64,000 nt of DNA from Callorhinchus milii. Its lineage: Eukaryota. The notes below the pieces were generated by a model. That model made no database searches, had not been told where the DNA came from, and worked only from the letters and a program-made list of their open reading frames with translations. Positions 12,519 through 58,498 of this stretch are shown here, piece by piece (positions within the stretch are counted from its first letter, which is position 1; every line of letters starts with the position of its first letter). The translations under genes were made by a program, and so were the position numbers. The stretch covers positions 92,444,001 to 92,508,000 of the forward strand of contig NW_024704742.1 in the NCBI RefSeq assembly GCF_018977255.1. The letters run 5' to 3'.

Positions 12519-23396
<10,878 letters not shown>

Positions 23397-27684: not shown

Positions 27685-27962
27685 CCTTTACGGGTATGTG
27701 TGTACGTAACAGTTTCCTCTTTGCATCACCCACGATCTGTGGTCAGTCAAATCAAACTGCATCTCAGTGACCAATGAATCCACTTATGTGGCTGTATACC
27801 GCACAGCATGGCACCACTGCCTCAATGACAAAACATTGTTGAGCAGGAAAGGGGGGGGGTGGGGGGATGCGGTGGGGGGGTGGAGATGGAGAAACATGAA
27901 TGTTCAATTCTGCACAAGTAACCATTAGGGTCACAACAGAAAGGATTTCCAAGATAACGGTA

Positions 27963-28650: not shown

Positions 28651-28864
28651 ACAGGCCTACTGTTTATTTCAAGTGAAAAACATTGATGGTTCTGATCCAA
28701 GCATTGGTGGCTGGCTGAGGGAGATGGGGTTGGTGGGAGTGGTAAAATGGTTGGTCCTTAAAGTTGGGGAGGTTACGGTTGATGTAATTGAAGTGTTTCA
28801 AATAAAGGGTTGCATATGGATGATTCAGAACGAGGAGACATTATTAGGGATAACAAAGAGTCCC

Positions 28865-28984
28865 TTCCCTCCCCTCACCCTGACCATTTCCCCCCTGCTC
28901 GGGTCTTGACCCAACTGTCCAGTGCCTTGGGACGTCCTCATGACGTGAAAGGCGCTCTATAAATGAAATCTTGTTGTTGTTGTT
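28865..28984 (+). mobile_element. Short LINE2 3' end
   Basis: Near-identical to 37465-37583; (GTT)n tail. Confidence 0.8.
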
Positions 28985-30894
28985 AAGAGTGGGATGCACT
29001 GGCACAGAAATTCATAGATAAATGAAGTTTCGAAAAGAGAAGGGAGTTTCTCCCGATTTCCTGGCCAAAAATCCCCCAGATAAAATTGGTCACCCACTTC
29101 ATGTCTGTTTGTGGGAAATTGCTGCATGCAAATTTGCTGCAGTATTCATTTACAAACAAAAATCCTGTCAAGTGCTTTGAGGCGTCTTGACAATGTGCTA
29201 TATCGAATGCAAGACCTATCATTATTAGTGTTATTAATAATACAATGCATCCTTGAAAGACCAAGTTCCTGAAATGTAGCTTTTTAAAAAAACGTGTTAA
29301 AGATCCCCACCACCTTGTAATATTACCAAGTAGAAACTTCTTACTTGTAGAATTTTTATGAGCAGGAGTTTTTGAATCCCTTCTGTCTCCCTCCCTTTAT
29401 CAGCAAAGTCTGTTGCTTATTGAGGTCAATACACTTGGGAGCCTTGGGAAGGCATGGTGGAACAACCAAATCGTGCCTGAAAAATAATTAAATGGTTCGA
29501 CTAATGAGCGCACATTTCAACTGGTTGATTAAACCCACAGAGGTTAGTTCTGGTTGCTTGTAAAGGGATTTCCCCCCAAAACAAACTGATAAAGCAGTCA
29601 TTTCACAGACCAGTGAATTTCACCCCCATCCCCGACAGTGCTCTCAATGGCAAGCTATATTGTTTTAGCTGGTTAAACTCCAGATACTCTGAAGTATGGT
29701 GATGGGTTCCCGCGTGCAGCAGGCACCCACCCGGTTGACCACAATAAAGATGCAGTGTTTTTACTGGCCTCCACTGGAAAAGTTAATGTTCTTATATAAA
29801 AATAACAAATCTTGAATTTTAATAGGATGGTACCGTCTACAATTTTGAAAACACGTCTGTAACATTGGAGGAGGAAAACAAATCAATTTATGTGTTTTCA
29901 GCTGAAATGCAGAACCTGCAAGAGGAAGGATGAAATTCAAAACAAATTGAAAGAAAAATTGGGAAAGAAAAATTACAGGTTGACATCATAGCAACTTTTA
30001 CACATTTAAGAATATGATCCCGTCACCTTCATGCCAAAGCAAACAAATCAATGTTGTTATCAGCAAGGTGGTTTACTTTGTAATATAAATGTGACATAAA
30101 CTGGCTTCAATTACAACCTTCAAAAACGACTCGGGGACGTCAGAATGCAATGTACTTTTGAGTCGCACTTAGAAGAAATAATGGCTATGTAGACTCACAG
30201 AAGGAACATATCTCATCAAACAACTTGTTGAAAGAGTCTTAGAATGCACAACTATGTCTCTCCACTGTCAATTATTGCTTAGCCCACTCTTACAAACAAA
30301 AAACTGAGCAGAGAACACCAGCTCTAATTTCTGACCCTTTTGCAAAACAAGCTGCTTCACTTGAAGTTTGTTCTGCAGTCAGTAAGATGATTTTATATTG
30401 TCCTTCCCTTCTGCAAAAAGAGTTAATTTCAGAGAGACTCCCTCTGTTACAGGGTGGGGATGGGTAGCTATAAGCCAGCACATCTGTCAGTGTCACTCTG
30501 CACAATTTGAACTGCTCGTGTTATTGACCATGAATTTAAGGCTATCTTTTATTTGTATCAGATTGTAAATTGCACAGCAATAAAAAAAATCACCAAATTG
30601 TATTCATCTGGGTGATAGATGGTTCCTGCTGTTACCATTGTCATTTACATGCAAATACATAAAGAGATAGACAGTGTTTTTGAAGTCCCCTTATAGTTCA
30701 GCCATAGCATTAAATAGAATAGATTAGAACAAGCAACAAAAAAGAAGGAAAGAGCATGGGAACCTAGCACCAGCACAGACACACTGGCCTTCTTCTGTAA
30801 TGTAAACATTTTATCAATAATAACTTAAAGGCAGGTGACAAAGTGGTCTGTTTCAGAACGAAACATTAGCTAACCTCAGAGCATTGTTAAAATA

Positions 30895-31156
30895 ATACTA
30901 ATCGTTACATTTGATATAGTACCTTATCATATCGTTGAGATGTCTCGAAGCGCTTCACAGAATATACTGTAAAGTGAATTGACTTATTATTTTTAAAGAG
31001 ATATTACGCGCAGAAAGCAATCTGCTAGCAACCGGGTTCCTACTTACTGTTAGCTAAATAGGCATGTGGAATAAGGAAACTTTCCTAAGGTTTTGCCCTG
31101 CCCGGGAATCCTCTTGCTTGAGAGGCGAGTGCTCTAACCAACACATTACAGGACTC
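30895..31156 (-). mobile_element. SINE, degraded
   Basis: Tail and head both recognisable. Confidence 0.75.
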
Positions 31157-32303
31157 TAAATTTGAAGAAAGTTTGACAAGATTAATTAGGTCAAACATTT
31201 CTTCACCAGGAAGTTTCCTGTAGTAAGAGGAAGGGATGTTTATGAGTGCTAAGCACCAGTTGAGAAGACCTGGTTTCATATCTTCCACCTGAAGGAGGAA
31301 TGATGAGAAGAAAGTTGGCTTCGCAGGATTCCAGGGCTAAGAAACTAAAGTGAAAGGATACTATGGGTTGCCTTGCTATCAGAATGATCTGTAGTCTGGT
31401 GGAGCCCAGTGCACTGAGCCACCAGTGCAGTAATACATAGATATGTGTCTGAAATCTTCTGCACACTGAGTTCCCAATATCAGCCATGTAGTTTTGGGAA
31501 TGGTGGAGCATAGGGCACAGAGTTTCCCATGAGGAGTACGAATTAGGTAGGTTATCCCGAACCACTCATGCATTTTCTGACAGCTGGTTGCGAAGTGGAA
31601 CTGAAAAAAGCCTGGGATCAGGGGCTGTAAATAAAACATGGGGAGACTAAATGAAAGTGAAGGGACAGCATTCACCTCAACAAGAAACACAGATTCGTGT
31701 TTTCCTGCCATTCAAAATCTAACCTGCTGCATCACCGTCTTATTTTATTAAAAGAAATGTCTGAGTTAAGAGAAACAGCAGATATTTGTGACCCTGTTTA
31801 GTGTAAGTATCTCGTAGCTATTCCCCAGATGGCATTGAAAGCAGACTTTTTTTGAACCACAGTAGCATCCTACATACACAAAGGAGAGGAGGTTGTATTG
31901 AAAAAGCTACAAGAGCATAAAGCTTTTTTTTAAACAATAGGTGTAATAAGCGATGAAGTAATGTAGCAGAAGTCTGGAACAATCAGTCATTCAGGCCAAC
32001 ATGCCAAATGTCAATTAATACTTTTTTGCAACTTCACTCATGCATAGTGGGATTCTTGAAGGTGACAGCCTTCCATGCTATTAAAACTCATTTGTCATCT
32101 TCTATTAGACCTCAGTGGTGCATATGAGGTGCACATACTTGATGTCAAATTAGTAATGATTTTCTGAGCTTCCATCAATAAAGGATTTCTTTAAAATAAA
32201 TTGTAGCTTTTATGTTGAATGCTTTTCATTATAGTAACATTTAGGTGCTAAGTTGGGTTGTCAGTAAAGAGCAATGTCTTTCTGATTGAAAAGGGCTGGA
32301 ACA

Positions 32304-32327
32304 CGAGAGAGAGAGAGAGAGAGAGAG
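32304..32327. repeat. (GA)n microsatellite
   Basis: Direct. Confidence 0.9.
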
Positions 32328-35300
32328 CATTAAGAAGTGTGTAAATGTAGCTTCTTGTCAAAAAGAAACCTTAAATGAGGGTCAAATTGTGATTTGTTTT
32401 CTCGAAGTAGGTCATGATTGTGTCGTTTTGTCCGCACGTTGCTTTGAACACATGTGAAAATAAGTGGATTGCAATGGCCATCATGTCACCCATTGACAAT
32501 TAACAATAGTGGGAATGTTTAAAAAGCACAAACGTTTTACACCAAGCCTAAAGCAATTATTCTCATTGAAACCAGGCACTGTGTGTACTGAGTTTGGAGA
32601 AACTGCAACAGTGACACAGTTGATTGACGTGTAGTGTCTTTGCTGCTGTGAAATATTCCCTCAGTGGAAATCAGTTAATTGGATAATTATCCACAGAAAT
32701 GTCTACAAATAACAGTTATATGTTTCATAGTAACTGCATTATCCTGTTCAGACCGAAGCTATTTCCTACCCAATAAACATCTCAGGTTTTGCAATAATAT
32801 TGAGGTGAACTTCGAATCAGCACATTCCAACAGGCAGAGATGACTGTGTCTAATGACTATGGATACTATCTGTGTTGGACAGTTCTGGTTTCAGCCACTT
32901 CTAAAGAACATTTATTATAAGTACTCATGGAATTGTGCACCGTGGACTCCCAAGGCCTGAATTTAAGCATTTAAGTCTTGGACTTAAGAGTAAATAATAT
33001 CCCCTATACCAAATTTTAGAGATGTGCTGCCGCTATTTTACTTGCATTTATTCCACAAACAGCCAAGAAGTTGATGACCAATTTTACCTGGGGGGTTGTT
33101 GGTCAAGAAAAAAAGTAGTCCATGGGATCTTTAACACCCACCTAAACAGGCAGACTAGGCCTCAGTCTAATCTGAGTAATGGCATTTCCCACGCCCAAAA
33201 CACTGAGTGCTCTCCCAGCTCTGTATTGGAGTTCCAGCCTAGACTATGAGTTCAAAGTCCTGACGTGAGGCTCAAACTCACAACCTTCTCGACTTCTCGG
33301 AGTCGAGGAGTGAGCCAGGCTGGCACTCCAGTTATGAGTAGAGTGAACACTAACTTTCCCATAGACCCTACCTTGTGAAGGAGATGTAATCCATAACCAA
33401 ATGTGCTAACCCTGGTTTAAAAATGGGATAACCCAAAGTCTTGCTTTCAAATTAATGGGATCAGGGAGGATGGAGGGCAAAGAGGGTAGCAGGGTGACCA
33501 AAGGCAGGGTCGAAGAGGAGGGTCTTGAGGCGTACCTTAAAGGAGGCAAGGGAGGGAGGGAAGGAGGTGAAACATCTTGACGCATTGAAACATGTCAAAG
33601 CACCTCACATTTTCTGTAAAGTGTAATGACTCCGTATTTGTAGGCAAACACAACAGCCAATGTATTTGGGGCTTATTGGCCAGGACACTACAACAATAAC
33701 AACTTGCACTTACATAGTGCCCTCCATGCAGGGTAGTGTCTCAGAGCGCTAGGAGAAACTCCCCTTTCTTTTCAAATAGCATGATCTGTAAGATCAACCC
33801 GAACATGCAGGTGAGACCTCAATTTAACGTTTCATTTGAAGGGCAGCATCTCCAAAATTGTCGCAATCCTAGCACTGCAATACAGCGTAAACCTAGACTG
33901 CAATTCAAAGTCCCAACATTGGGCTTGAACTCCCAACCTTCTGACTCAGATCGAGAGTGAGCCAGCCTGATACCTTAGAAGAACTAATTAGACAAGGCCA
34001 ATTCTATTTCTGGGAATATCTGTTTTGTGGATTTGAATTGCCTCACTACCTTTCAACAGAGTGGCTTTATTTTTGCCTCTTTAGTCATCGCTGCCCATGG
34101 AAAAACTCACATGTTTTCTGATTAAGAAGCATGGGGAAGAGATTTTATCCCTAAGGGACACATCAGCCACCTATGGCTTTTTACTACATGCACTGTGTAC
34201 AATGAATGTAATGAAATGCAATACCTTACAATAGCAACCTTACAATAGAAATCAGCTGAATGTTATTGCAGGTCACATCGGACACATGCCAAGACTGTTA
34301 TGAGAATTAGCAATGACTAATTGTTATGTCGCTGTTTTGGGTGACTGAGAATCTTAGGCTTTTCCTGATCGGCAAAAGAGACCGTTGGAGTTACTCTCTT
34401 AACACTTCCAGTGTTATAATCATAATAATCCTTGCATTTCAGATCTTACCTTATAAAGTCAAAATGTCTCAAAATGTCTTGACTGTGTATTTGTGGACAA
34501 ATGTGGCAGTCAACAATGCCCCACAAAGAGCCATGATGTGAATGGCCATTTTTTTAAATGAAACTGATTATCTACAATCAAGCACAGCATCATAGCAAGC
34601 CTTCCCTGGCCAAGAAATAGGAACCCTTTTAGACCAGCGTGCATTTTGCATGGGAAGTGACAAGAATGAGAGGTTTTATTTGCCAACCACATTATTCATG
34701 CTTAAACAGAGTTATAGGCTGTCACCTTACTCTGAGCTGATAATGGTGTAAGTGGGTCACATATCACCAGGATGGTTTAACTAATACTACATCTTACAAT
34801 GCAAAGAAAGTGCCACATTGAGCGCTCTGGGACGCCGCCTGGCATGGAGGACACTTTATAAATGTAAGTTGTTGTTGTTGAAATACAAAGTGAAAACAAT
34901 ACAAAGTTATGAATAAAGTGGAAAAGTTTCATTTTAATAAAATACATTTTTTTAGAAGAAAAGTAATTCACTGTGTGGCCTGTAACACTTTATTTTCAAG
35001 AATATATGGTTCCCTTGGGGAGAAAAGAGTGCAGTGACATTGAGATTGTCTAAGCTGCTTTTATATTAAACAATATGGACAAAAGACAATTTCATATAAA
35101 AATAATGAAAGCAATTGAAATCATGCTATTGTGAGCTGACAGGCCTGTGAGTGTGTATTTTATCCCAGTCAGTGCCACATGATGCTCCACACAATCCAAA
35201 GTGTTTGTTAAATAGTGTTTAATTAAATGGCAATATGTTCTTGTCTTGTGCTCCCTCCTGACTAGCAAGATAGTAGGTGAAATATGAGAAGAACTCCTTT

Positions 35301-35699
35301 GTCACTGCAGACTGAAATAGCTGTTAAGGCACACTGGGTGTCCAAGAATGTAATGAACTGGTTTGTTATTGAGCAGAGTCAGGCTCTTTATTACATCTGA
35401 GCCTTGCTTATTACAAGGGGTTAGGGGGAAAATCACCCCCAGCCAATCTGAGCTGTGTTGTAAGTATTAACTGCATGGTTAAATCAGATATACAGAACCA
35501 TATCTATACCTGCACATGAACAGTCTTTCAGTAGTAAATGTGGAATCAATATCAATGAGCTAGAACATATTTCATATTCTTTTGTGGTAATTTGCCACTG
35601 ACGGTAATTTAAGGCATTCCAATGATCAGTGAGATGATGCAAATAACTAAAAAGCCTTCATGTTGCTTTTGTTCTTTTTTCCCCTTCTGTTCCACAAGA

Positions 35700-36290
35700 T
35701 CACGAAAGGATTGAATGAAGAAGGCCCTTTGGCCCATTTGATCTAATTTTCCAGAAAATTTACCCGATCATCTTCCAATCGCAACATCAATCTGTTTTAA
35801 AAATTAGTCCAGCATCCGAACAATAACCACCCTTCGCAAAACTAAACCCGCGTCCTCTTTTTCTGCTGCCTCAATTCATCTGTTTATTTTTTCAATCACA
35901 TTAAAAAAAATTATATCCCTCAGTAAGATTCCTTCTGAGAGTTCTCTTGTGATGACTGAAGAGCTCTGAAGAGTTTTGTCTGATTGTTGCTCATAGCATA
36001 TTCCTCTAATGCTTGGGATCATACTCGTTGCTCTCTTCCACACTGGTTCTGGGGTCTGGGCAGCTCCCTTATGTTGTGATGATCAGAACTATATGCAATA
36101 CTCTAGGTGCACCCTGATCTGAGCACTATGCAGCTTGACTATGATGCCTGAGGGATGTAAACTCCACTGATTTCATAATATAGCCCAACATTCTGTGTTG
36201 CCTTGTTTATTGCTGTTTCACACTAATTTGACATGGCAAGTGGTGAGCCAACTATTACATCAAGATCTCTTTCAACTTCCCCATTGGCAA
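35700..36290 (-). mobile_element. Degraded CR1 fragment
   Basis: Antisense CR1 RT C-terminal signature (cagaactatatgcaatactctaggtg, agcccaacattctg). Confidence 0.6.
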
Positions 36291-36704
36291 ATAACCTGAA
36301 GACCACTCTCTTAAAATGTAATTGGTGCAACATTTTTGAATATTCTTAATTTTATTCACTATTTGGAAGGCAGAGGATGTGTTGGATTATGGAGCCCTAA
36401 CTCTGTCTAAAAAAAAGGACATTTTACCTTTGGTTAAGAATACTCTGACCTCCTGTAATCCTCTGAATACAATTGAGAAGCATGGGATAGCAGTGCTGCA
36501 GCTATGTAAAGGGGTGGATTTGAATTGGGTACCATTATTTGGCACTTGCAGGCTATGACACAACAACGTGTAGATCTGAATACAGTTTTTTCCTTTGCTT
36601 TCCCCAAATGAAGGTATTTTTGTACTTAATTTGGAGGCCACAAAGGCAAAGTTGCTTTCTTATTCTTAAAATTCACAGAATTGGGGGTTTCCATATTACT
36701 AAAG

Positions 36705-37900
36705 TGTGTCAGCCTGGCTCAGTTGTTACCACTCTCTGGGTCAGAAGGTTGTAGGTTTGTGCCCCACGTAGGAACTTGGAATCACATAGGATAAGCTGAC
36801 ACTCCAGTGCAGCGCTGGGGGTCTGTTACATTGCCTTCAAAGCCCTCCACGGCTTTGCTTCCCCCCCCCTACCTCTCCGACCTCATAACCCCATATCAGC
36901 CTGTCCGCTCCCTCTGCTCCGTGGACACCGGCCTGCTTCATGTCCCCCGCACTTACCAACCCACCATTGGTGGTTGGGCATTCAGCATCTCTGTCTCTAC
37001 ACTCTGGAACTCTATCCTGCAATCCCTCCGCCTCACCCCCTCTCTTCCCTCCTTCAATTCCCGTCTGATGACCTTCCTCTTCGGCTGTGCCTTTGGCCAC
37101 CCTCCCACCCCCACTTCCTCTTCTGATCCTAACTCACAGCTTGGGTCGAAAACCCCTGATTATCCAGCACCCTGGGAAGTCCTTCCGACGTGCAGGGTGC
37201 TATACAAGTATAATTTGTATACTCCGTTACTTAGTTGTATATTTCCATTCCTCTGGCTCCGGTCTGCTCCACATCCCCCGCCCCAACCGCCCTACCATCG
37301 GTTGCCGGGCCTTCAGCCTCTCAGCCCCCAGGCTCTGGAACTCCATCCCCCAGTGCCTTCGCTTTGCTTCCTCCCTTTCCTCCTTCAAGGCCGGTCTCAA
37401 GACCTTTCTCTTTGACCGTGCCTTCAGCTCCCCTCTCGACTCTCTACTCGCTCCTTCTCTTGCCTCCCCTCACCCTGACCATTTCCCCCCTGCTCGGGTC
37501 CTGACCCAACTGTACAGCGCCTTGGGACGTCCTCCCGACGTGAAAGGCGCTCTATAAATGGAATCTTGTTGTTGTTGTTGTTGCTGTATTGTCAGAAGTG
37601 CTGTGCTTCGGATGAGACGTTAAACCCGATTGCCTGTTTAGATGGACGTTAAAGATCCCATGGCAATATTCAAAAAAAAAGAAGTTTCTCCCAGTGTCCT
37701 GGCCAACAATCCCCCAAATAAAATTGGTCACTCACTCCATGGTTGTTTATGGGACATTGCTGTGTGCAACTCAATATCGTGATTCACCCACAAAATACAC
37801 AGTCAATCCACTTTACAGTATATTCTGTGAAGCGCTTTGAGACATCTCAATAACATGGTAAGGTGACATATCAAATGCAAGGATTATTATTATTAATAAT
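36705..37900 (+). mobile_element. Older Deu-domain SINE (SacSINE1/AmnSINE1-like) split by the LINE2 insertions
   Basis: Head gtcagcctggctcagttg... at ~36705-36820; body cttcggatgagacgttaaacc...aaagatcccatggc resumes at ~37585 and ends caaatgcaaggattattatt. Confidence 0.75.
36835..37583 (+). mobile_element. Two tandem LINE2 3' fragments nested in a SINE
   Basis: Two LWNSI..FKxxLKT modules (~36835-37215 and ~37250-37583), second with (GTT)n tail. Confidence 0.85.
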
Positions 37901-38762
37901 ATAAATTGCATTCGTCAATTAATATACCGATATAAGCATCAGTTCAATCAAAACTGTAATATTTTAACACAGTGCAAATTAACAGTAAAATCCAAAAGTA
38001 TTGAAAATGATATATCTGCAACTTTGCGACTTTGAATTACATACTTCTAAATAAATAATTGGTCATTCACTTTATGACTGCCTGTGGGGCTTTGCTTTGC
38101 ACTGCCACTTTCTCCTAGGAATACTTTCATTCCATTTCACAGTAAATCCTGTGAAGCTCCCAAAGTGAAAGGCACTGCACCAAATGCAAGGATTATTATT
38201 AATAATAACAATAATAAGAGCCACAGCAATTATTTTGAAAGATTTCAAATAACACCGAGTAATAACTGGGATATGATGGGCAAACATAACAAGAAGGGTA
38301 GAAAATGCTCCAGATATATAATCATGTGAGTCACCACACAGTTCATGTAAATACCTGCTTTACCATGTTGATCATGCAGCCCATTGTGAAAGGATAATTC
38401 CAAATGAATACTTTGGAAAGTGGTTGAGAAAGTTAGAACTGTCACACACAAAGAAAATGAATAACAACTCAAGTAGGTTATTATCTTAACTGCAGTAAAT
38501 CATTTAATGAATGGCACGTTGATTCCGGCAACACAACTTCACTGCAGTGCCTCTTTCATGCAATATTAATCATTTTATATTTTTGTGAATTATTTTCTGG
38601 AAAAGTCAAATACATTGATTTATATTCCAAGTGAATGCAGCATTTCATTGACATAAAGAGAATAGTTTCTAAACATTAGAAAATGCAACTGAAAAAGCAG
38701 TGGTTTGTTTTTCTTATAGGGGCAAAGAAATGGTTCAGATGAGCTTTTACTCTTTCTATCCT

Positions 38763-38933
38763 TTATTGGTCCAGTTGTTCCAGTTTAGCTAGTCTTTGTT
38801 CAAGGATTTTAAAGTTGACTCTGTGCATCATTAGAAATTGTCCATTCAAGTGAAAGACAGGTATGTCACACTTGTACCTGTCAAACCACACAGAATTCTC
38901 AGGCAGACTGATATCCACTTCTTGTAGGACGAA
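38763..38933 (-). CDS. C5orf63: C5orf63 last coding exon
   Basis: minus strand: ctgatttgcag|TTC...CAA TAA; 171 nt. Confidence 0.94.
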   Translation of the reverse strand, partial: FVLQEVDISLPENSVWFDRYKCDIPVFHLNGQFLMMHRVNFKILEQRLAKLEQLDQ

Positions 38934-41900
38934 CTGCAAATCAGATAAAAAATAATACGTATTTGATACAACCCTTTATCAGGTCATTGAATACAGCATC
39001 TCAAAGTGATTCACAGGCTTTATTGTAATGTGCAGCGACTGGGAACTTGTAGGCAAACCAAATAATCCAAAACAATACATGAAATTAAATAAAGTCTCAT
39101 TTATGGTATTTCTTAAAGGGATTCCTTAATAAGAAATCCTGTAAGCAATCCTGATAGAATTCCTGTCAAGTCTTTGGGAACTCCACTCTCAAAGTAGATT
39201 GCGTTGAAGCAGAGAGGCACTAGATTATGTTTAACACAACCCCAATTTCTGCAACTCAGATTTCTTATTAAGGAACGATTTGAGAAATAACGCAAAGTAG
39301 ACCCCAATTTCTCGAAAATCACTCATGATAACTGTCACTGATGATGAATCTAAGAGACAAAACTAAGAAGTCCCAAAGCTGTGAGTTTTGTGAATGTCTT
39401 TCTTATGATTAAAGACCAGAACTCACTATAGTTAATGAGGTATTCCCTTTATTCCATAGTTTTCAGTCATTACTGTGGCTGTTATGTGGGGCCTTGATGG
39501 AATTTAAAGCTGGGGTACACTAATAGGTGGACATAAGAACACTTTAACAGTTAAAAATGCTGTTTGTCGCTGTCAATCTATCATAATGTTTTCTGCAATG
39601 GAGATTGAGATGGCAAGAGAACAAGATTTGTTTGGTTGAAGAAGGCCCTTCGATGTATCTGCTCGCATCCCTCCAGTACACCCACCCTACCGTTAACCCC
39701 CACCCACCACCCCCAGCACTGCATCAAGCTGCTTTTCGATTGAATCTATTGAACTGGCCTCTACCACCTTTCCTGACAACCTATTCCAGTTGTTTTTTAC
39801 CCTTTGTGTAAAGAGTATGAAGGTGGTTTATAACTAACAAAGCTGATCTGTGTTTCTGGTTCCCTGTTCCTCAACAATCAAAGCGTTGATACTCATGAGC
39901 AAACACTGAATATCAGTGGCACAATGACATCAACTCCATGTCCCTGATAGTGATCTACATTATGATGACGTATATAATTATAAGCTTCTGGAGGTCGAGC
40001 CACACGATCTCAACCGCAACTGGGACTGGAACCGCTCTCCTCCAGCAATCAGACACGCCTTGACTCACAAGTGACCATCAGACCAATTGCCGGTGACCTC
40101 CCTGGGGAGAGAGATGGGGGGGGAGGGGGGGGGGGGGAGAAGAGGACACTGATGACATTCCCGCTGCCTTGTAGAAGGTAGTGATTAGGGATGATGCATT
40201 TATTCACACTTATATAAATGGTCACAGGGAAAATGATTCAATAAACCAAATCATTTAATTACCCGACATTCAATTAACCAAATTTCACTGTATAGTAAAC
40301 ATCAGTCTATTCTGGACCACAGATCTGGTATTTGGAGCATACACAGGGCTACATAATAATAATCCTTGCAATTGATATAGCACCTTATCACAACTTCAAG
40401 ACGTCTCAAATCGCTTCACAGAATATACTGTAAAGTGAATTGACTGTATATTTTGTGGGCGAATCCCGGCAGCCAATTGTGCACAGCAGTGTCCCCCAAA
40501 CAGTCATGGATTGAGTAACCAAATTATTCCCCGCAGAAAAACAATCCGGCAATCGACTAACAACTGAGTTCATACTTATTGCTAGGTAAACAGAGGCGTG
40601 TGGAGTAAAGAACTCACATCCTCTTGCTTGCGAGGCGTAGTCGCCTCTAACCACTAAGCTACAGGATTTTGTATCGCCACTATACATGAACACAATCAAA
40701 TATACAGGAATTAATGAATGATTTTCAAATGCCCATATCTAACTATTAGCCTGAACGATGATATAGAATTATGATTTGAATCTGATGTTTCACAAAGTTT
40801 ACAAAATTTTGTAAAACTTTGCTGCTTTTATAAATTAGTTCACCATTTATGTTAATTACTTCTTATAATTTTGGTTACTGGCAAGATATGATCTGTTGGT
40901 TTTATTGATTAAAAATAATCTAGAGATTTAAAAAAAATGCTTTGCAGATTTCCCAAAAACTTTGAAGATTTCCCGCAGATTTCCACTAATCCATCTGAAC
41001 TGCATCTTCAAAAATGCCAATGTACAGGGAAAGATTAGCTATTTATTGTGTGGACACATAGAATAGTTAACCCGATGTGCACAATTCTGCACATATATCT
41101 GTTACTGCTGTCTTTATCACAAAAAAAGGACTTCTTTTTTTTCCCGAATCCAATAGAGAAGTTCACCAAATGCAAACAATGGCCAAGTGTTTGAAAACTA
41201 AAAATATTCTGTGAAGTGATGGATTGACAAAAGAGATAAGTTAAAAAAAAATGGTCACTCAATCCACCACTGTTTGTGAGACATTGCTGTGTGCAATTGG
41301 CTGCTGCAGTTCATCCAGAAAATACACAGTCAATCTCTTTACAATATATCCTGTGAAGCGCTTTGAGACGTGCCAACGATGTGATAAGGCGCTATTTCAA
41401 ATGCAAGGATTATTATTATGCAAATTTTAGTCTTCTGGAGACATTAATATTTTCCGAAGATTGAATCACAATGAGAAAACAAACTGTTACAATTAAAAAT
41501 AAAGCAGCAAGGGCGATACATTCCTCCTGGCTCTAGATTTTATTCTATTTAGGTAACATATTAGAGCGTCCAGAATTTGGCAAATTCCTGAATAGAGCTG
41601 TAATTTTGAAAACAATTTCTTAAGTTCTTTTAGGAAGGTTTACTGTAACCCAGTTCAAAGCGAAGGCTGAATTTAGCAATCTGCTAAATTCCGGATGCTT
41701 CAAAACGCTACCCAAATAGGATAAGTCTAGACCCAGGTGGAATGTATCCCTGCAGATTGCAGCAGCTTACAGTATCATAAACTTTTTATTTCTTACTCAA
41801 TATTTGTTCACTGAATTTCATACCCTGCATTTATATGGCTCCAAAGTCTCTTTTGCTTCTTCACAAAGTGGACAAGGATCCTGGAATTAAAAAAAAAGAC

Positions 41901-42286
41901 TGAGTATTTTTTCACAACTATTCAACCTTTTGCATTATTCTGCAAATGTTATAACTAAAATTGTATTTTTCAAAATAATGCATTTGTCTACATTTCTATA
42001 ACATTCTTTCATGTTGATTATGCCATAGTTGATGTGTTCTCTAGTACACCGTTGCAAAAAGTTAACAGAGGGTTGAAACACAGTTTATTGTCTAAAATGT
42101 GCCAGATCTAGAAATTGAGTGAAAGGCGCTCTATAAATGTAATTTTGCTGTTGTTGTTGTTGTCTGTACCTTGGTAAACAATGTTAAAACTGGCAGATTC
42201 CTCTTCTGCGAAAACATTCTTCTTAGAAAATGTTCTGCCATAGACTTGGTTGATAGCCCGAGGTTTGAATAACAAAGCCGATACAT
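38763..42286 (-). CDS. C5orf63: Glutaredoxin-like protein, C5orf63/YDR286C family, 114 aa; complement(join(38763..38933,41824..41880,42170..42286))
   Basis: Three phase-0 GT-AG exons translate to [129 protein letters not shown] and [17 protein letters not shown] are recognisable C5orf63 motifs. Confidence 0.93.
40353..40667 (-). mobile_element. SINE, longer variant
   Basis: Same tail and core plus the segment gctaggtaaacagaggcgtgtggagtaa. Confidence 0.85.
41250..41420 (+). mobile_element. SINE 3' half
   Basis: Core plus tail. Confidence 0.8.
41511..41750. repeat. Long imperfect inverted repeat (~80-bp arms), MITE-like
   Basis: gatacattcctcctggctctaga..ccagaatttggcaaatt pairs with aatctgctaaattccgg..tctagacccaggtggaatgtatc. 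Confidence 0.8.
41824..41880 (-). CDS. C5orf63: C5orf63 second coding exon ([19 protein letters not shown]), carries the CxxC
   Basis: minus strand: ttttaattccag|GAT...AGG|gtatga; 57 nt. Confidence 0.94.
42170..42286 (-). CDS. C5orf63: C5orf63 first coding exon (exon begins at 42299; ATG at 42286)
   Basis: minus strand: catttcag|tggcagcacaacaATG...ACCAAG|gtacag; 39 codons; basic N-terminus resembling a mitochondrial presequence. Confidence 0.9.
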
Positions 42287-42649
42287 TGTTGTGCTGCCAC
42301 TGAAATGGATTAAAATTTAAATGGATTATATGTTGATGAGAAGATATACAACTTGCATTTATATAGCGCTCTTCACACGAAGTAGCATCTCGGAGAGCTT
42401 AACAGTAACTTATGATTATTACAGCAAACTTCTGTTAGAGTTACTACCATCTTCCTGGTCTAACCTATCTCTGCAATTGCCTCTAGCCCCATTCTCCTCA
42501 CTCATTCAACTATGGCCTGTTGCTCAACCCTCGCCTTTTCTGTCCCACCATCGATCCCACCACCATGTAGAATGCTGTGCCCAAATCCCTTCTCCATGCA
42601 TCCTCTCTCCCTGCTTTCAAACCTCCTAAAAACTCCTTTTTGTCTTCAT

Positions 42650-42936
42650 GGAGCCCTGTAGCTCAGCGAGAGACCTAGGTTTGATTCCCGGCAGGGTGAA
42701 ACCTTGGTTACGTTTCCTTACTGCACACGTCTGATAATAATCCCTCAAGAAAAGAAACAATAATAAATTGGTCACTTCAATCCACGACTGTTTGTGGGAC
42801 ACTGCTGTGCGCAATTGGCTGCTGCGTTTCGCCCACAAAATATAGTCAATCCACTTTACAGTATATTCTGTGAAGCACTTTGAGATGTCTAGAAGATGTG
42901 AAAAACGCTATATCAAATGCAAGGACTATTATTATT
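42650..42936 (+). mobile_element. SINE with internal deletion in the tRNA head
   Basis: Same core and tail as 48971-49288. Confidence 0.85.
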
Positions 42937-43609
42937 GTTTGACTGTGTCGTTGCTTAACAACCTCAACCCCTCCGCACCCACTTTCCACCTTCCTTGATT
43001 TTTAGTTTCTATAATTCATAGAGCACAGAAGGAGGCCATTCAGTCCATCGTGCCTGTGCCACCTCTTTGAAAGAGCTACCAATTAATCCCACTTCCCCCC
43101 TCTTTCCCCATACTTTTGCCAATTTTTCCTTTTCAATTAGATAGAAGGAATAAAGAAGGAATGAGAAAAGGCAAGTCACTTCAATTCTTCTCACAACACA
43201 ATCTGCATCCACATACAGTACTATATTTGAAATACTTTCCCAACCTCACAGGAAGAGTCTCTTTTGAGACACTTGCTCTGTGGCTTGTGATAAACAGAAG
43301 CTCTCTTTAGTTTTTTTTTAACAGTGATGATATCACCGGAGTAAAACCCTCAGTTCTCAATAAAACAGAAATGTAATATTCTAAAATGAAGCGTCAGAAT
43401 CAAGTAAACCCTCTGTGGCGGACCAGGTAGTCTTGTTCCAGAGTCAGGTGTGTCCGCAGTATTCCAGGGCACAATATCTTTCTTGTAGTATGTTGACCAG
43501 AACTGCGCATAGTACTCCAAATGTGGTCAACCAAGATTTTATGCTTAAAGGAATCCAAACCATGGTGATAGGTTTCTGCCTGCGTCAGACATACTTAACT
43601 ATTCCAATG

Positions 43610-44107
43610 CCCTCCTCTCCGGTCTCCAGCTCCACCATTCATAAAATCCAGGCAATTCAAAACTCTGCTGCGCCAAACTCCGCACCCCCAACACTTCAGT
43701 GACGCTGCACCCTGCTCATCCAGGCCTCGATGGAGCCAGGCTTCACTTGCTCCCTATTGCATAAAAGGTTGATTTCAAGATACTCGTGTACAAATCCCTT
43801 CATGCCCTGACACCTTTACCTCACCGATCATTTCACTACCCACTGCCTTCACTAAACTGGCCTCCTGCATGTTCCTTGTCCCCTCCGCTACACCGTCACT
43901 GGCTACGCTTTCAACCACTGCGCCCTGAAACTATGGAACTCTCTGCCTCAATCCCTCCATCTTGTCCCCTCGTTAATCATCTTCAAATCGCAGCTGAAGA
44001 TCTTAGTCTTCAACCGTGCTTTCGGTCTCCCTTCCTCCCTCTCCCAGGTTTGGTGTCAAGGTTTGGCGCTCTGAGAAGAGTACTTTATAAATTCAAGTTG
44101 TTGTTGT
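43610..44107 (+). mobile_element. Degraded LINE2 3' fragment
   Basis: IHKIQAIQNSAA, YKSLHAL; tail ataaattcaag(TTG)n. Confidence 0.7.
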
Positions 44108-44399
44108 TCTGTCACCTGTCCTCCCTTTCTGCATCTATTTTACAGTCCTTGTACCAGCCTGTCCAGCTCGGACCACCCTTCCTATCAGCGCTCTGGCTTG
44201 CAGGGTTAACAGGGGCTGAGCGGGATGACTCTCAGCCCCCAGTGACTGCTCTGCCTTCCAGGTCGTGTTGATGTGCCAGGCTGTGCTGTGCTGTGCTGTG
44301 CTGCCATCAGCAGCGCCCTGGAAAACCGCAGACCCGCCTGGCTCAGGATCCAGGCTGGAGACCCCCACAGAGGGTTGGCTTGATTCCGGCATTCCTTTG

Positions 44400-45040
44400 C
44401 CAGGCACGTCAGCTTGGAGCCAGTTCAGAGTTCAGCGTTCAGCCCGGAGGCGGCGCGGCGCGGCGGCGCTCCCCGGGGACAGCAGTCAGGGGTTTAGATT
44501 TCAGGGCCAACATAGACAAACTTGATGAGCGGCAGATGTTTGCTTAAAGCAGCCACAGACAGACCCGCAATTCCCGGTCAAACGCGGCAGCTCCTGTTCC
44601 TCACCACCTCTGCAACAGTGCAGCCCAGTGCCCCGGCACCAGGCCTCACACCCTCCAGCTGTCAATCACCGCCGGCCTCGCTCCTCATAGGTCAGCGCTG
44701 CTGTCAATCACCGCCGGCCTCGCTTCTCATAGGTTAGCGCTGCTGTCAATCACCGCCGGCCTCGCTCCTCATAGGTCAGCGTTGCTGTCAATCACCGCCA
44801 GCCTCGCTCCTCATAGGTCAGCCACTGCTGTCAATCACCGCCAGCCTCGCTCCTCATAGGTCAGCGCTGCTGTCAATCACCGCCAGCCTCGCTCCTCATA
44901 GGTCAGCGCTGCTGTCAATCACCGCCAGCCTCGCTCCTCATAGGTCAGCGCTGCTGTCACTATCCCTCCCTCCTGCAGTGTGTTGGTCGAGGACATTGGG
45001 CGATCACTGACTGGCGCAACGCCCCCACCTGGTCTTCTGT
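44400..45040 (-). promoter_or_regulatory. GC/CpG-rich promoter and probable non-coding exon 1 of C5orf63 (candidate donor GTG|gtgagg, exon ending 44605)
   Basis: The clearest non-LINE CpG-dense patch in the window, ~2.3 kb upstream of the ATG-bearing exon, which itself begins at a splice acceptor. Confidence 0.6.
44659..44959. repeat. 42-bp minisatellite, 7 full copies plus a partial (CTGTCAATCACCGCCRGCCTCGCTCCTCATAGGTCAGCGCTG)
   Basis: Units start at 44659, 44701, 44743, 44785, 44828, 44870, 44912, 44954. Confidence 0.95.
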
Positions 45041-45319
45041 TGAATTACACCCCCAACTCAGCAAACTCTGACAAAAGGTTTGTGAACACAGCATTAACAC
45101 GTGTGAGTGTGTTTCCAAAAAAAATGAGACGCAAGTATTTCACAACCTGAGCAGAACTGTGGTCAGAACACTTACAAGTATCCAGTATTGCTGAGCGCTT
45201 TGAGACGCCCTCCTGACATGAAAGGCGTATGAATGTAAATTATACTCTTAAGTATGAAAACAAACCAATGCATTTAATAAGAATGGTACACGTATAAATG
45301 ACTTGTACTGGTAGTTGAA

Positions 45320-48970: not shown

Positions 48971-49288
48971 GGAGTCCTGTAGCTCAGTGGTTAGAGCACT
49001 CGCTTTGCAAGCGTGACATCTAGGTTCAATTCCAGGCAGGGTGAAACCTTGGGCAAGTTTCCTTACTCCACACACCTAATAATAATCCCTCCAAAACCAA
49101 AACAATAATAAATTGGTCATTTTTAATCCATGACTGTTTGTGGGACACTGCTGTGCGCAATTGGCTGCCGCGTTTCGTCCACAAATATACAGTCAATTCA
49201 CTTTACAGTATATTCTGTGAAGCGCTTTGAGACATCCAGAAGACGTGAAAAGCGCTATATCAAATGCAAGGATTATTATTATTATTAT
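48971..49288 (+). mobile_element. Full-length SINE
   Basis: ggagtcctgtagctcagtggttagagcac...caaatgcaagg(att)n. Confidence 0.92.
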
Positions 49289-50710: not shown

Positions 50711-51043
50711 ATAATAATAATAATAATAATAATCCTTGCATTTGATATAGCGCTTTTCACGTCAGGAGGACGTCCCAAAGCGCTTCACAGAACACACTGT
50801 AAAGTGAATTGACTGTATATTTGTGGGCGAACGCGGCAGCCAATTGCGCACAGCAATGTCCCACAAACAGTCGTAGATTGAAAATGACCAATTTAATTAT
50901 TGTTTTTGGTTTTTTTGGAGGGATTATTATTAGGCTCTGTGTGGAGTAAGGAAACTTGCCCAAGGTTTCGCCCTCTGCCTGGGATTGAACTCAGGTCTCT
51001 CACTTGCAAAGCGAGTGCTCTAACCACTGAGCTACAGGACTCC
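50711..51043 (-). mobile_element. Full-length young SINE, same subfamily
   Basis: Near-identical to 16151-16474. Confidence 0.92.
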
Positions 51044-52302: not shown

Positions 52303-52610
52303 ACTACATTGTGTTACTCCATACTACACTGTGCTACTTTGTGCTACTCTGTACTACACTGTGCGAAACTGTACTACACTGTGCTACTCTGTACTACACT
52401 GTGCTACTCTGTGCTACTCTGTACTACACTGTGTGAAACTGTACTACACTGTGCTAACCTTACTACACTGTGCTACTCTGTACTACACTGTGCTACTCTG
52501 TGCTACTCTACTACACTGTGCGAAACTGTACTACATTGTGCTACTCTGTACTACACTTTGCTACTCTGTAATACACTGTGCTACTCTGTACTACGTTGTT
52601 CTACTCTGTA
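52303..52610. repeat. 10/20-bp minisatellite (TGTACTACAC/TGTGCTACTC), left part
   Basis: Visible tandem array; produces the spurious C/Y/L-rich ORFs. Confidence 0.92.
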
Positions 52611-54640
52611 GTGCACCAGCCACCTACGCTCCCTTAAAGCCCAGGCCCGTTCCGCTGAGTGCTCCTGGCTTAAATCAAACCTAACTGTCCATTGGTAGAT
52701 TTGGCTGGACCGTGTCAAAATCCTACCGCTCCGCTAAATCGTTGTTCTACTCCAAGACAATCTTGGAGGTTAAGGACAACCCCAGGCTCCTCTTCTCCAT
52801 CACGAACCGGCTCCTCCGCCCACCCTCTCACGCTTCACCCATCCTCACCTCAAATGCCAACTGTGAGGCGATGCTGGACTTCCTTGAATCCAAAATCGAG
52901 GGAATCTGCTCAGCTGCCTCTGCCACTGCATCTGCTAACCCCTCCCCATCTCCCCTCCCACCCCGGCCCCTACCCACCCCTCCCTCCACACCTTTGAACC
53001 TGTCTCCCCCTCCTCTCTCATCACCACCATAACCCGCATGAAACCCACCACCTGCTGCCTCGACCCCATCCCTATCCCCTCCTTACCTCCCAGCTCCACC
53101 TCCTTGCCCCTCTACTCACTGACATCGTCAATCTCTCCCTGACCTCTGGTACTGTTCTCACCCCTTTAAAAACCGCTGTCATCATTCCTATCCTTAAAAA
53201 TCCCTCCCTGGACTCTTCACTACTCCTTAACTACCGCCCCATCTCCAACCTCCCCTTCCTCTCCAAGGTCCTAGAATGAGTTGTTGCTTCTCAGTTTCGC
53301 TCCTTCCTCTCCCACCACTCCCTTCTCGAACCCCTCTAATCGGGCTTCCACAGCACAGAAACTGCCCTGGTCAAAGTGACAAGTGACATTCTGTCCATCT
53401 GCGACCAGGGCTCCCTCTGCCTCCTCGTCCTCCTTGACCTCTCTGCTGCTTTCGACACTGTCGACCACTCTATCCTCATCCACCGCCTCTCCTCCACCTC
53501 AACCTCCATGGCGTTGTCCTTGATTGGTTCAGATTGTACTTCTCACACCAGCTGCATCTCCTCCAATGGCTTCTCCTCTAGCCCCCAGACCATCTCATGC
53601 AGCGTTCCTCAGGGCTCTGTCCTTGGTCCCCTTGGTGACGTTATCTGCAGACATGGGGTCAACTTCCCCATGTATGCGGGTGACACCCAACTCTGCCTCG
53701 CTGCCTCCACCCTTGACTCCAAGACCACCTCTGTCCTGACTGAATGTCTGTCAGACATCAAGAAGAGAGCTAACTTTCTTCAGTTGCACATCAACAAGAC
53801 CGAGGCTCTCCTGATTGGCTCCTGTCAGCGCTTCCTCACCTCAGGCGCTGACAGTATCACCATCCATGGTTGCACACTCCACCCTTGCAAAGCCAGTCCA
53901 GAACCTTGGGGTCTTGTTCGACCCTCAAATATCCTTTCTTCCCCACATTCGCGCCATGACCCGCTCTACCTTCCCCACCTCCGCAATGTCACCCGGCTCC
54001 AAAACCGTCTCACACCACAGGCCGCCGAAACTGTCATACAGGCCTTCATTACATTGAGGCTCAACTATGCAAACTCACTGCTTTTCGGCCTCCCAACTCC
54101 TCCCTTCACAGACTGCAGATCATCCAGAACTCTGCAGCCCGTGTCCTCTCCCCCACCAGGCTCCATGACCCTATCACCCCATCCTTGCCTGACTCCACTG
54201 GCTTCCCATCACACAGAGGATACAGTTCAAGATCCTGGTCCTCACCTTCAAAGCCCTCCATGGTCTTACTCCCCCCTACCTCTGCGACCTCCTAATCGCC
54301 TATCCTCCTGTTTGCTCCCTCCGCTCAGCGGGCTCTGGCCTGCTTCACATCCCCCACCTTGCTCTCCCCACTATCGGCGGGCCTTCCGCCACTCTGCACC
54401 CACCCTCTGGAACTCCATCTTGCAGTCCCACCGTCTCGCCCCCTCCCTCACCACCTTCAAGACCCACTTCAAGACCCTCCTCTTTGATGTGCTTTCGATC
54501 TCTCTGGTTCCCCCCCACCGCCCTCCCCCCGCCCCCACCCCGACCCTCAGCTCAGGTCCGTAACTCTGTCTGTCCAGCACCTTGGAACGTCCTCCTGAGG
54601 TGAAAGGTGCTATAAATTGTAATCTTGTTGTTGTTGTTGT
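52611..54640 (+). mobile_element. LINE2 (L2/CR1 group) retrotransposon, 5'-truncated, degenerate RT ORF2
   Basis: [61 protein letters not shown]; stops and frameshifts; 3' end gtgaaaggtgctataaat...(GTT)n. Confidence 0.92.
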
Positions 54641-54808
54641 ACTGTGTACTACACTGTGCTACTCTGTACTACGTTGTGCTACTCTGTACTACATTGTGCT
54701 ACTCTGTACTACATTGTGCTACTCTGTACTACGTTGTGCTACTCTGTACTACGTTGTGCTACTCTGTACTACGTTGTGCTACTCTGTACTATGTTGTGCT
54801 ATTCTGTA
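54640..54808. repeat. Same minisatellite, right part
   Basis: Array resumes immediately after the LINE2 (GTT)n tail. Confidence 0.92.
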
Positions 54809-56514
54809 CAGAGGCATCTCAGCCACAAGGAAAAAGGAAAGTGGGCGCAGAACCCCTATAGAAAGGTATATCGATGACTTGATAGAATAGCTAGATTTCA
54901 GAGCAGCAGCAGAGCCAGGTTTTACATCTGAGGTGGAGCAATGGGCCATTAGTGGTGCCACCTTTCCATCCTTCTCCATGCTGCCTCATACCTCCCGCTC
55001 CCCCTCTCTATCCGCCGTTCACCGAGCTGCCTCTCATGAAGTTGTATGAGGCACGAGGCAATGTGGAGAGTGACAGAAAGAAAGTCTGGAGTGGTAGGTG
55101 AAGGCATCACTGGGGAAGGAGGCGACTGTATCCCAAATCATTTGCTTCAAGTTCAAAACGCTATACCATTGCACTTGTTATCCTTTCCTTTGATGTGGAC
55201 ACTTATGTGCCTTTTATCATTCTTTTATAATTCTCCATAAATGGCCAACTCATGCATTTTCACTTCTGGGATAGCAAAATACTACGATGAATTATGAATG
55301 CAAGAGCAATGCATATTCTTTTTTGTTCCAATATTTTTATTTTTATTCTCCAAGACTGGGGCTTTCTCCAACCCCATTTCTTGTAACTAGCTTTGAATAT
55401 GGCTTTGACTTGGCCCTGAATTTGTGGCACATCATCTGTAGAAACCACAGCACAACACGTGTAATTCTAGGTCAAACTCTACATATGTGTAAAATATGAG
55501 CTTCACTATAATTTGAGGTTTGTTGAGTCAGCGACATTGCTCTCAGTTATCATTATGTTGCTGTATTTAAAGTAGAAATGAATTATTATGTGGTGTAAAA
55601 TGGAAACTGTATAATTAACTGGTTGCATGTTCAATGTCAGTGTTTCTGCAAGAGTTGAATAACATTTCAGCAATAAACACAAGTTAATGTTCTCCACTGT
55701 CTCTGCATGTGGTGTTTCCTGTCCTTTTGTGAGCGTAGAATATTTTGAAATATATTTTACAAATCATTCACATCAGAATTTGCTTATGTCTTTCTCACAT
55801 CAAAGGACTGAGATTGCTCATGTTCTTAGCCTTAAGACCATTGTATTAAAATGTAAGATTGGGCAGAATTTTGGAAAATTCCTTAAATCAGGCTTGATTT
55901 GGAAACTGGCTTTGCACAGCTCTTAAAAGTAACTGTGGAAAACCAGGGATTTGGAAGGTATGGGGAAAGAGCAGGCTATTGGAATTAGGTTTGATGGCGT
56001 TTTGGAGAAACAAATTTTGATGTGAAAAAACAGGCCAAATGGCTTTCTGCTGTTTCACACATTTCTCTGGTTCTCTGACTTCTCTGATTCACCTCCCAGG
56101 ACAATACTACCATTCAGGTTTAAAAATAATAGATGGAATGTTGCTATTGTACAGAGGTCCTGAACGTATGCTGAGAAGGTGTTGACTGGCACTAAACTGC
56201 AATTTGCTTAAAACTCTAGACAGCTTCATACAATTCTTGCTGAGTCACTCTATGTTATTTTAATAAATATCTCGATGATGTAATGGGAACATGGTAGGAT
56301 TGGTATTCCGTGATGAAAAGATCAATTGGGCCGAAGGGCCTACTCCATCTGAACCGCTCTTGTGATCTTGTGATTTACAATTGTGGAATGGAAAAAAACG
56401 TCTTGTAGCAAAGCATTGACCTATTTCCGTTGGGCAGCATTCCAGCTTAAAAGTCAACTAATTTTTTCTGCAAACAGTCGTTTGAATTGATGCTTTTTGT
56501 TACTGTGATTCCAC

Positions 56515-57465
56515 AGACACGGGGTTAACTTCCACATGTATGCGGATGACACTCATCTCTACTTTTCCGCCTCCAGCTGCGATCTCCAGTCCCCTGATAT
56601 TTTGTCAGATTGTCTGTCGGACATCAAGAGCTGGATGAGCGTAAATTTCCTGCAGTTAAATGTCAATAAGACGGAAGCCATACTCTTTGGCTCTCGCCGA
56701 CGTCTTCTGTTCCACAGTTCTGACCTCCTCAACCTACCCGACCTGTCCTTAAAACTCTCTGAACCCATGCGCAATTTAGGCGTCAGGTTCAATCCCCAGT
56801 TATCCTCCCTCCCCCACATACGGTCCCTGACCAGCACCGCTTTCTTCCACCTCCGCCACATTGCCTGTCTCCGAGAATACTTCACTCCAAAAGCTGCTGA
56901 AAGCCTTGTCCACGCCTTTGTCATCTCTCGGCTGGACTACTCTAACGCCCTCCTCGCCGGTCTCCCCTCCTCAACTATTCACAGAATTCAACTCATTCAA
57001 AACTCGTCGCCTGCATTCTCACCCGCACCAAACTTCGTATCCCGATTACTCCAGTCCTTGCCAAACTCCACTGGCTCCCTGTCACAGAGAGGATCAACTT
57101 CAAGATCCTCACTCTAGTGTTTAAATCCCTCCATTCCTTAGTAACCCCCTATCTCTCTAACTTCCACAGCAGTATCTGCTGCTTCTGCTCTACTAGGGCC
57201 GACCACGTTCTCCAAATTCTTCTCTCCACTATTGGCGGTCGTGCCTTCAGCCACTAGGCCCCGAAACTCTGGAACTCTCTCCCTCAACCTCTTTGCCTCG
57301 ACCCCTCCTTCCCCATCTTCAGGTTGTACCTGAAGATCTTCCTTTTTGACCGCATCTATGGTCACCTTCCCCCTCCCCCTGGCTTGGCCTTGGGCTCCGC
57401 CATTGTTAAGTGCTCTGAGACACCGCCTGGTGTGGAGGGCACTATATAAATGCAAGTTGTTGTTG
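56515..57465 (+). mobile_element. LINE2 fragment (RT C-terminus and 3' end)
   Basis: YADDTHLY...NFLQLNVNKTEAIL...HAFVISRLDYSNALLAGLP; tail actatataaatgcaag(TTG)n. Confidence 0.9.
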
Positions 57466-57489
57466 TCGACTTAATTCGCTTCAATATTT

Positions 57490-58498
57490 CAAATATTGAC
57501 TGTGTCGGGGCCGTTTCCTGCTCTCGCAGTGAGTTAGAAGCATTTATAAATTTTGCTTCCACCTTCCATTCCTCCATAAAATTCACATGGATCAACTCTG
57601 ACTCTTCCCTTCCCTTCTTCGACTTCACTATCTCCACGTCAGGTAACAGACTATTCACAGACATTTTCTATAAGCCCACCACCTCCCACAACTGCCTTGA
57701 TTACACCTCATCCCACCCAGCCTCCTGCAAAGACGCCATCCCATTTTCCCAATTCCTCCACCTCTGCCACATCTGCTCTGACAATGCAACCTTCCACACC
57801 AGAGCAACCGAGATGCCCTTATTTTTGCTCGACCGAGGAATCCCATCGACAGTAATAGCCAAGGTCCTTGATCGTGTCCGCCCTATTTCCCTCATCTCTG
57901 CCCTCACCCCTTCCCCCCATCCTGGAACCGTGATAGGGTTCCCTTAGTCCTCACCTACCACCCCACCAGTCTCAATATTCAGCACATCATTCTCCGACAT
58001 TTCCAGCACTTCCAGCATGACTCATCCACCAAACACATATTTCCCTCCCCTCCCCTCATTCCAGAGGGATCGTTCCCTCCGGGATTCCTTAGTTCATTCC
58101 GCCGTCAGCACTACCAGCTGCTCTCCTTCCCCGGCATCTTCCCATACCAGCACAGGAGATGCAATGCCTGCCCTTTCACCTCCTCCTAGACCACTATCCA
58201 AGGTCCCAAACATAGCTTCCATGTAAGACACCGGTTTACATATACTACCACCTAATGTATCCGCTGCTCACGGTGTAGTCTCCTCTATATCGACGAGACT
58301 AAGCACAGATTGGGTGAATGATTTGCAGAACACCTCCGTTCTGTACTCATGGTCAACCCTGATCTTCCGGTCTCCTGCCATTTCAACTCACACTCCCATT
58401 CACAGTCTTACCTCTCCATTCATGGTCTCCTATGCTGTTCCAATGATCCACAGCGAAAGCTTGAGGAACAGCATCTTATCTATCTGCTAAGGACCCTA
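57490..58498 (+). mobile_element. Penelope-like retroelement fragment (RT C-terminus and GIY-YIG endonuclease), degenerate
   Basis: FINFASTFHSSIKFT..LPFFD..TDIFYKPT..LDYTSSHP..KDAIPFSQFL; downstream IRCSRCSLLYIDETK..EHLRSV..PVSCHFNS..EEQHLIY. Confidence 0.85.

Follow-up and report, generated by a model that had tools for sequence, protein, structure and literature searches.

The analysis covered a window of 64,000 nucleotides from Callorhinchus milii (contig NW_024704742.1), and all coordinates given here are positions within that window. Three coding exons on the minus strand were joined at GT-AG ends to give one open reading frame of 114 amino acids, and the product was identical to database protein P0001, annotated as 'glutaredoxin-like protein C5orf63 homolog [Callorhinchus milii]'. 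The last exon was matched by Pfam Glrx-like with an E value of 1e-6, and the search that returned P0001 also gave a mouse homologue, C330018D20rik (P0117), at 75% over this exon. The exon frame, the Pfam match and the identical database protein confirm the original identification of this minus-strand gene as C5orf63.

42170–42299, minus strand: first coding exon of C5orf63, with the ATG at 42286 and the acceptor at 42300 or 42294 (splicing, protein match)
41824–41880, minus strand: second coding exon of C5orf63, containing the CPLC motif (splicing, Pfam search)
38763–38933, minus strand: last coding exon of C5orf63, to the stop (Pfam, protein match)

No protein-coding partner in divergent orientation emerged when 69 of the 75 upstream frames of at least 70 amino acids were scanned, a search that small exons would escape, and the only two hits obtained were both to reverse transcriptase. 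Scanning of 50 of the 59 frames in 22300–38700 gave one reverse-transcriptase match, and a pattern search of the window did not reveal a RING exon resembling MARCH3. An ANP32-family gene converging on C5orf63 is presumably represented by plus-strand exons at 19258–22075 that encode leucine-rich repeats (Pfam LRR_4, E 2e-4) and long acidic stretches. A 165-amino acid frame at 57450–57944 (plus strand) had no Pfam match; we liken it to the terminal part of a reverse transcriptase of the Penelope type.

The feature of interest is a minisatellite that lies 2.4 kb upstream of the C5orf63 ATG. Tandem Repeats Finder, applied to the 64-kb window, gave a period of 42, 7.2 copies and 95% matches. The elements within and around it are as follows.

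44658–44959, minus strand: minisatellite with a 42-bp unit (one of 43 bp) in 7.2 copies, having eight TGACAGC sites around seven spacers (Tandem Repeats Finder, sequence)
44659–44921, minus strand: seven perfect DECA motifs TGATTGACAG of 10 bp each (sequence)
44687–44944, minus strand: seven CCTAT boxes with RR..SR flanks, starting at 44944, 44902, 44860, 44817, 44775, 44733 and 44691 (sequence; published geometry and consensus)
44954–44965, minus strand: outermost degenerate TALE site TAGTGACAG, with the hexamer intact and one base short of TGAGTGACAG (sequence)
44982–44986, minus strand: CCAAC in 42-bp register with the array boxes (register identity 15/42, p 0.13, not significant)
44995–44999, minus strand: intact CCAAT, the only one on the strand of the gene within 44300–45300 (sequence)
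45017–45029, minus strand: GC-box-like GGTGGGGGCGTTG (sequence)
44605–44660, minus strand: candidate non-coding exon 1, with the donor GT at 44607 or 44604 (contig depth bins and arithmetic)
44300–45000 (approximate), no strand assigned: GC- and CpG-rich patch, of which the array is the upstream half (CpG o/e)

On the plus strand the decamer reads CTGTCAATCA and starts at 44659, 44701, 44743, 44785, 44828, 44870 and 44912; no further perfect copy is present in the window, on one strand or the other. A tandem array of perfect decamers had been predicted from the sequence, and both this count and the repeat analysis bear it out. The prediction of seven 42-bp units held for the seven decamer-headed units, except that one of them is 43 bp long. 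Similarly, CTCATAGGTCAG was expected in each unit and is exact in six of the seven, the unit at 44701 having CTCATAGGTTAG in its place. The array ends with an eighth TGACAG at 44954–44959, where the full decamer is incomplete, and the surrounding TAGTGACAG appears to be a decayed decamer. The CpG o/e over the array was 0.78–0.91 in 200-bp steps compared to 0.40 for the whole window, and the array belongs to the CpG-rich patch instead of lying upstream of it as had been proposed.

Five transitions and one insertion distinguish the units from one another. CpG>TpG changes account for two of these six mutations and would be consistent with methylation, and a single CpG/TpG site divides the units into four upstream and three proximal. 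None of the six falls within the decamer, an outcome with a chance expectation of 20% by hand calculation, (32/42)^6, and therefore not significant. Each unit also contains an 8-codon frame beginning with ATG, the stop of which is the TGA of the next decamer (44688–44941, minus strand). Rfam and ARAGORN gave no match at the array.

Four arrays of at least 160 bp cover 1.4% of the window, indicating that arrays arise readily here. A second near-perfect array was found at 15360–15520 (23 bp × 7, 97% matches) and is devoid of CpG, TGACAG and CCAAT, while two related 10/20-bp minisatellites lie 2 kb apart at 52324–52610 and 54640–54809. A frequent dispersed repeat is headed by tRNA-Ala(TGC)-like calls (16401–16471, 48973–49044, 50970–51040 and 63239–63308) and is probably a tRNA-derived SINE.

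The position of exon 1 was examined using contigs of four runs placed at 80% likeness on 41750–44720, an interval that reaches the first unit and a half of the array. The contigs are filtered and reveal neither transcription start nor expression level, and the RNA labels of runs X5 and X7 are guesses. SINE and LINE copies swamped the tables of joints, loose ends and letters, leaving almost nothing for 44400–44720. The depth of X5 was 8–12 on the listed intron contigs and 53–152 on exons. Its depth of 28.1 in the bin 44550–44649 is reproduced by 49 × 11.7 (the listed contig) plus 42 × 53.4 (the depth of exon 2) with an exon end at 44608, where AG/GTGGTG stands. The donor at 44604 has a better score on a rough consensus and predicts a depth of 29.8. 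The same arithmetic also reproduces exon 3 (39.5 versus 39.6). The depth of X5 then falls to 8.1 in the next bin, which contains the first unit. In 44450–44549, 44550–44649 and the first-unit bin X7 gave 0, 69.8 and 8.25, respectively; the value of 69.8 at 44550–44649 is ambiguous because intron patches of X7 reach an exon-like 47–53. Zero depths of X7 (44450–44549) and of a third run, X19 (44450–44649), were excluded as evidence of absence. These data make it likely that a short exon 1 adjoins the array. The contig depth of the two probable RNA runs fits the predicted adjacency of array and exon 1 indirectly, but a joint between exons 1 and 2 was not among the 15 joints listed (2618 more).

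Several other features of the introns were observed. Contigs of X7 at 42472–42696 and 43725–44161 have the exon-like depth of 47–53 and possibly represent retained or alternative non-coding segments. Intron 1 contains a (GCTGT)n microsatellite at 44272–44310, and the X5 contig over 43942–44598 has 10 gap letters, perhaps two (GCTGT)n units fewer.

The depth over the first unit also bears on where transcription begins. If the start lay 60–100 bp below the intact CCAAT, at approximately 44900–44940, the array would be mostly 5' UTR and its 8-codon uORFs would damp translation by copy number. This arrangement would place the intact CCAAT at 44999–44995 and the GC-box-like site upstream of the start, and would make use of the ATG and short frame in every unit, each unit adding one uORF if starts shift upstream. 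NF-Y is known to fix the position of the start, and its loss leads to upstream starts and uORFs (10.1101/369389). The first-unit bin, however, has a depth of only 8.1–8.3 in both probable RNA runs compared to 33–152 on exons, even though contigs of all units could pile up in it. This speaks weakly against upstream starts, since the bin stands at the margin of the stretch and the contigs are filtered. Starts at 44900–44940 with uORF damping are considered very improbable.

Contigs from two relatives, B (run X17) and C (run X19), contained orthologous coding exons that share many differences from the window. In relative B the depth was 36 in the first-unit bin, where a single copy would give approximately 44, and 33 over the candidate exon 1. 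Relative C gave 484 in the same bin (44650–44720) against 49–58 for a single copy, with the flank uncovered. Contig depth is no copy number and gives a lead only, but the values could reflect about one unit in B and, for C, either about ten units or a repeat of unrelated origin. The high depth of X19 with zero flank would also fit derivation of the unit from a dispersed satellite or mobile element that carried the motifs, and NF-Y and TALE proteins do co-bind MER57 LTRs in human cells (PMC12065363). The geometry of MER57 is different (PMC12065363), X17 has approximately single-copy depth in the bin of the unit, the best look-alike outside the array in the window agrees at 24 of 42 positions, and the index that was scanned contained no look-alike. 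Such an origin is regarded as extremely improbable. Metagenome contigs contained 0 exact matches to a 33-base piece of the unit, which is uninformative for a vertebrate locus.

The predicted identification of the decamer as a PBX-PREP site was upheld, as it matches the published DECA motif, tGAxtGaCag (PMC6023610; PMC4395233). The composite element formed with NF-Y has been described as GAnnGAC-11 bp-CCAAT with both sites on one strand, a 12-bp spacing being modelled as tolerated (10.64898/2026.02.16.706105), and is elsewhere written TALE-10 bp-CCAAT (PMC12065363). The NF-Y consensus is RR-CCAAT-SR, and CCAAT is typically found at −60 to −100 (PMC11802806). On the strand of the gene each of the eight TGACAG sites is followed by C, and CCTAT follows seven of them, 11 bp beyond GAC in six and 12 bp in one. 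The box follows a full decamer in six of seven cases; in the remaining case it stands 11 bp after the outermost upstream TALE site, and the start-proximal decamer is perfect without a box. All seven boxes have the RR..SR flanks of the NF-Y consensus. The core is CCTAT in all seven, and none contains the intact CCAAT pentamer. The CCAAC at 44982–44986 was considered as the trace of an older ninth unit upstream, a reading rejected because its register identity leaves it unproven.

The chance rates of these features were estimated by shuffling. When the circular unit was shuffled 3,000,000 times, TGAnTGACAG occurred 702 times, the seven copies counting as one event; outside the array this motif was observed only at 25599 on the plus strand. 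A one-mismatch CCAAT somewhere in the unit was obtained in 44% of 100,000 shuffles and consequently means nothing alone. When the decamer was fixed and the remaining 32 bases were shuffled 500,000 times, a one-mismatch box on the published strand appeared at 11 bp in 0.6% and at 10–12 bp in 1.8%, and a box that also had NF-Y flanks in 0.044% and 0.14%, respectively. A pyrimidine at −3 is part of the NF-Y flank consensus. The flank test (YRR/SR) also demanded this base, without which the last two values would roughly double. Among GAnnGAC sites outside the array, 3 of 85 had a one-mismatch box at 10–12 bp. It is the geometry and not the mismatch box that beats the shuffles, which shows the unit to be a presumptive descendant of a real DECA-CCAAT element.

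The proposal that a working TALE/NF-Y module was amplified is not supported, because the NF-Y core is CCTAT in every unit and the pentamer is mandatory: every base of CCAAT has been called mandatory for mammalian NF-Y, and with the plant NF-Y trimer a transversion at each position lowers binding (PMC6843132). For each unit to work as such a module, Sp2 bridging and tandem cooperativity would have to seat NF-Y on CCTAT, with variable copy number scaling expression. The geometry and flanks are preserved in all units, Sp2 stabilises NF-Y and TALE on DECA-CCAAT in vitro (10.64898/2026.02.16.706105), a 43-bp spacing class exists among double CCAAT boxes (PMC4889920), and the promoter repeat of human TRIB3 provides a precedent (PMC7425993). 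Against this, Sp2 was unbound with NF-Y or TALE singly in the EMSAs of 2026 (10.64898/2026.02.16.706105), and the literature found contained no paper joining CCTAT with NF-Y and CCAAT and no report of Sp2 rescuing NF-Y on CCTAT. Working modules are quite unlikely, as is NF-Y on the units barring rescue by Sp2 bridging. A more speculative extension, judged decidedly improbable, is that tandem decamers and Sp2 bridging let NF-Y occupy CCTAT in a binding-site-seeded array whose length differs among cartilaginous-fish lineages (about one copy in B against about ten in C, should the depth values reflect copy number) and sets the output of C5orf63. If this reading of CCTAT occupancy were true, the array would be a natural titration series of a TALE/NF-Y/Sp2 element.

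It is also conceivable that the array is functionally inert, a neutral and possibly methylated minisatellite with its motifs unbound and the promoter run by other elements. Minisatellites are common in the window, CpG>TpG changes distinguish units, no Prep1 peak is listed for the mouse orthologue in the available ES-cell tables (PMC4395233), and many possible motifs could catch the eye of a reader. An inert repeat would leave unexplained the coincidence of a perfect decamer with the published spacing and NF-Y flanks, and its placement by a likely exon 1 in a CpG-rich patch, and is considered rather unlikely.

The reading favoured here, with a probability of about 0.55, is that a locus-specific minisatellite has grown in the proximal promoter of C5orf63, where it would act as consecutive PBX-PREP (PKNOX) sites and its units would bind NF-Y little if at all. 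It would most likely be a PBX-PREP array and not a working TALE/NF-Y array, and it stands in what is likely the promoter of a small housekeeping gene of the elephant shark. The seed of the duplication was probably a pair of TALE sites 42 bp apart, since eight TGACAGC sites bound seven spacers; once six units are deleted, just such a pair remains, with TGACAGC common to both. The single-copy ancestor, reconstructed from the flanks only, would have carried these two sites, the upstream one as a DECA-11-CCAAT composite of which both halves have since decayed and the start-proximal one as a perfect decamer. The shared TGACAGC may have served as microhomology for slippage or unequal crossover, and the intervening 42 bp would then have been copied six more times, each duplication coupling a perfect decamer to a broken CCTAT box at the canonical spacing. 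This growth was probably neutral.

In the one-unit state the intact CCAAT would lie at −78 to −86 from 44660–44668, within the usual −60/−100, with the GC-box-like site near −110. In the present state they lie near −335 and −365, the CCAAT being 253 bp further off. We read GGTGGGGGCGTTG at the latter position as an Sp/KLF site. PBX-PREP dimers would be bound to the decamers just upstream of the start, and occupancy of the seven perfect decamers, lying as they do in the CpG-rich patch, is likely. The single intact CCAAT, at its increased distance, would supply the NF-Y input. The effect on expression is likely to be modest and in either direction, as added units bring TALE sites yet push the intact CCAAT away. 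In ES cells Prep1 is found mostly at promoters, with DECA in 70% of 3902 peaks, and the binding of PBX-PREP dimers to the decamer occurs mainly at promoters of basic cellular genes (PMC4395233).

Conservation of a PREP-driven promoter has no support from the mouse, as C330018D20rik is 2.06-fold up in the Prep1 knockout (PMC4395233 supplement) and has no peak: the available ES-cell peak table did not contain the gene by name, Ensembl id or four coordinate prefixes, and its expression row lists no peak (PMC4395233). A very strong Prep1 peak (mouse chr18:57084709-57085824, score 3100, enrichment 125; PMC4395233 file 4) was observed at the start of March3, the mouse C5orf63 homologue starting approximately 50 kb away. 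The gene was not found in files 1–8 of the 16 in the supplement of PMC7793273 or in the two files of PMC4694823. It was also not found in the seven files of PMC6023610, where the control anp32b was likewise absent, making this result uninformative.

Multiplication of a factor site by a promoter repeat is already known as a class, including in human promoters. The present array is a clean example, in which two homotypic binding sites appear to have supplied the microhomology for their own amplification and the amplified unit retains the exact DECA-CCAAT geometry despite a broken NF-Y core. The biological stakes are modest, since C5orf63 is a small, little-studied glutaredoxin-like gene. The array lends itself to asking if NF-Y can be rescued by cooperativity on a non-consensus box, and which counts for more, the additional activator sites or the lost spacing to the upstream CCAAT. 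As judged by titles and abstract openings, none of the papers listed for the 'C5orf63' promoter describes this locus, and no description of a tandem DECA-CCAAT array was found in the literature searched.

When the array was compared with known systems, it shared with the DECA-CCAAT composite the decamer (perfect in seven of eight sites, the eighth retaining the hexamer only) together with the strand, order, 11-bp spacer, NF-Y flanks and probable promoter position (10.64898/2026.02.16.706105; PMC6023610; 10.1101/720102). The mouse Sp2 promoter likewise contains several DECA-CCAAT composites (same sources). The array differs in that its core is CCTAT and its copies are near-identical tandem repeats and not separately evolved. 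The unit is not counted as a member of this class because its pentamer is CCTAT in all seven copies; it looks like a decayed one. The MER57B1 LTRs co-bound by NF-Y and TALE are also repeated DNA with both kinds of site, but these retroviral LTRs are dispersed and their TALE site lies 3' of CCAAT at a distance of approximately 50 bp (PMC12065363), whereas the array is a single tandem locus with promoter geometry.

The closest known case is the 33-bp promoter VNTR of human TRIB3, a composite site present in 1–5 copies in people and as a single copy in other mammals, which raises expression (PMC7425993). One obvious difference is that polymorphism, the single copy in other mammals and the reporter and eQTL effects have all been demonstrated for TRIB3. 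The factors also differ, being TALE and NF-Y at C5orf63, where half of the composite is broken. In both cases a promoter segment with a composite factor site is repeated in tandem, at C5orf63 near the likely start, and by this comparison the array would be classed as a promoter minisatellite of the TRIB3 type.
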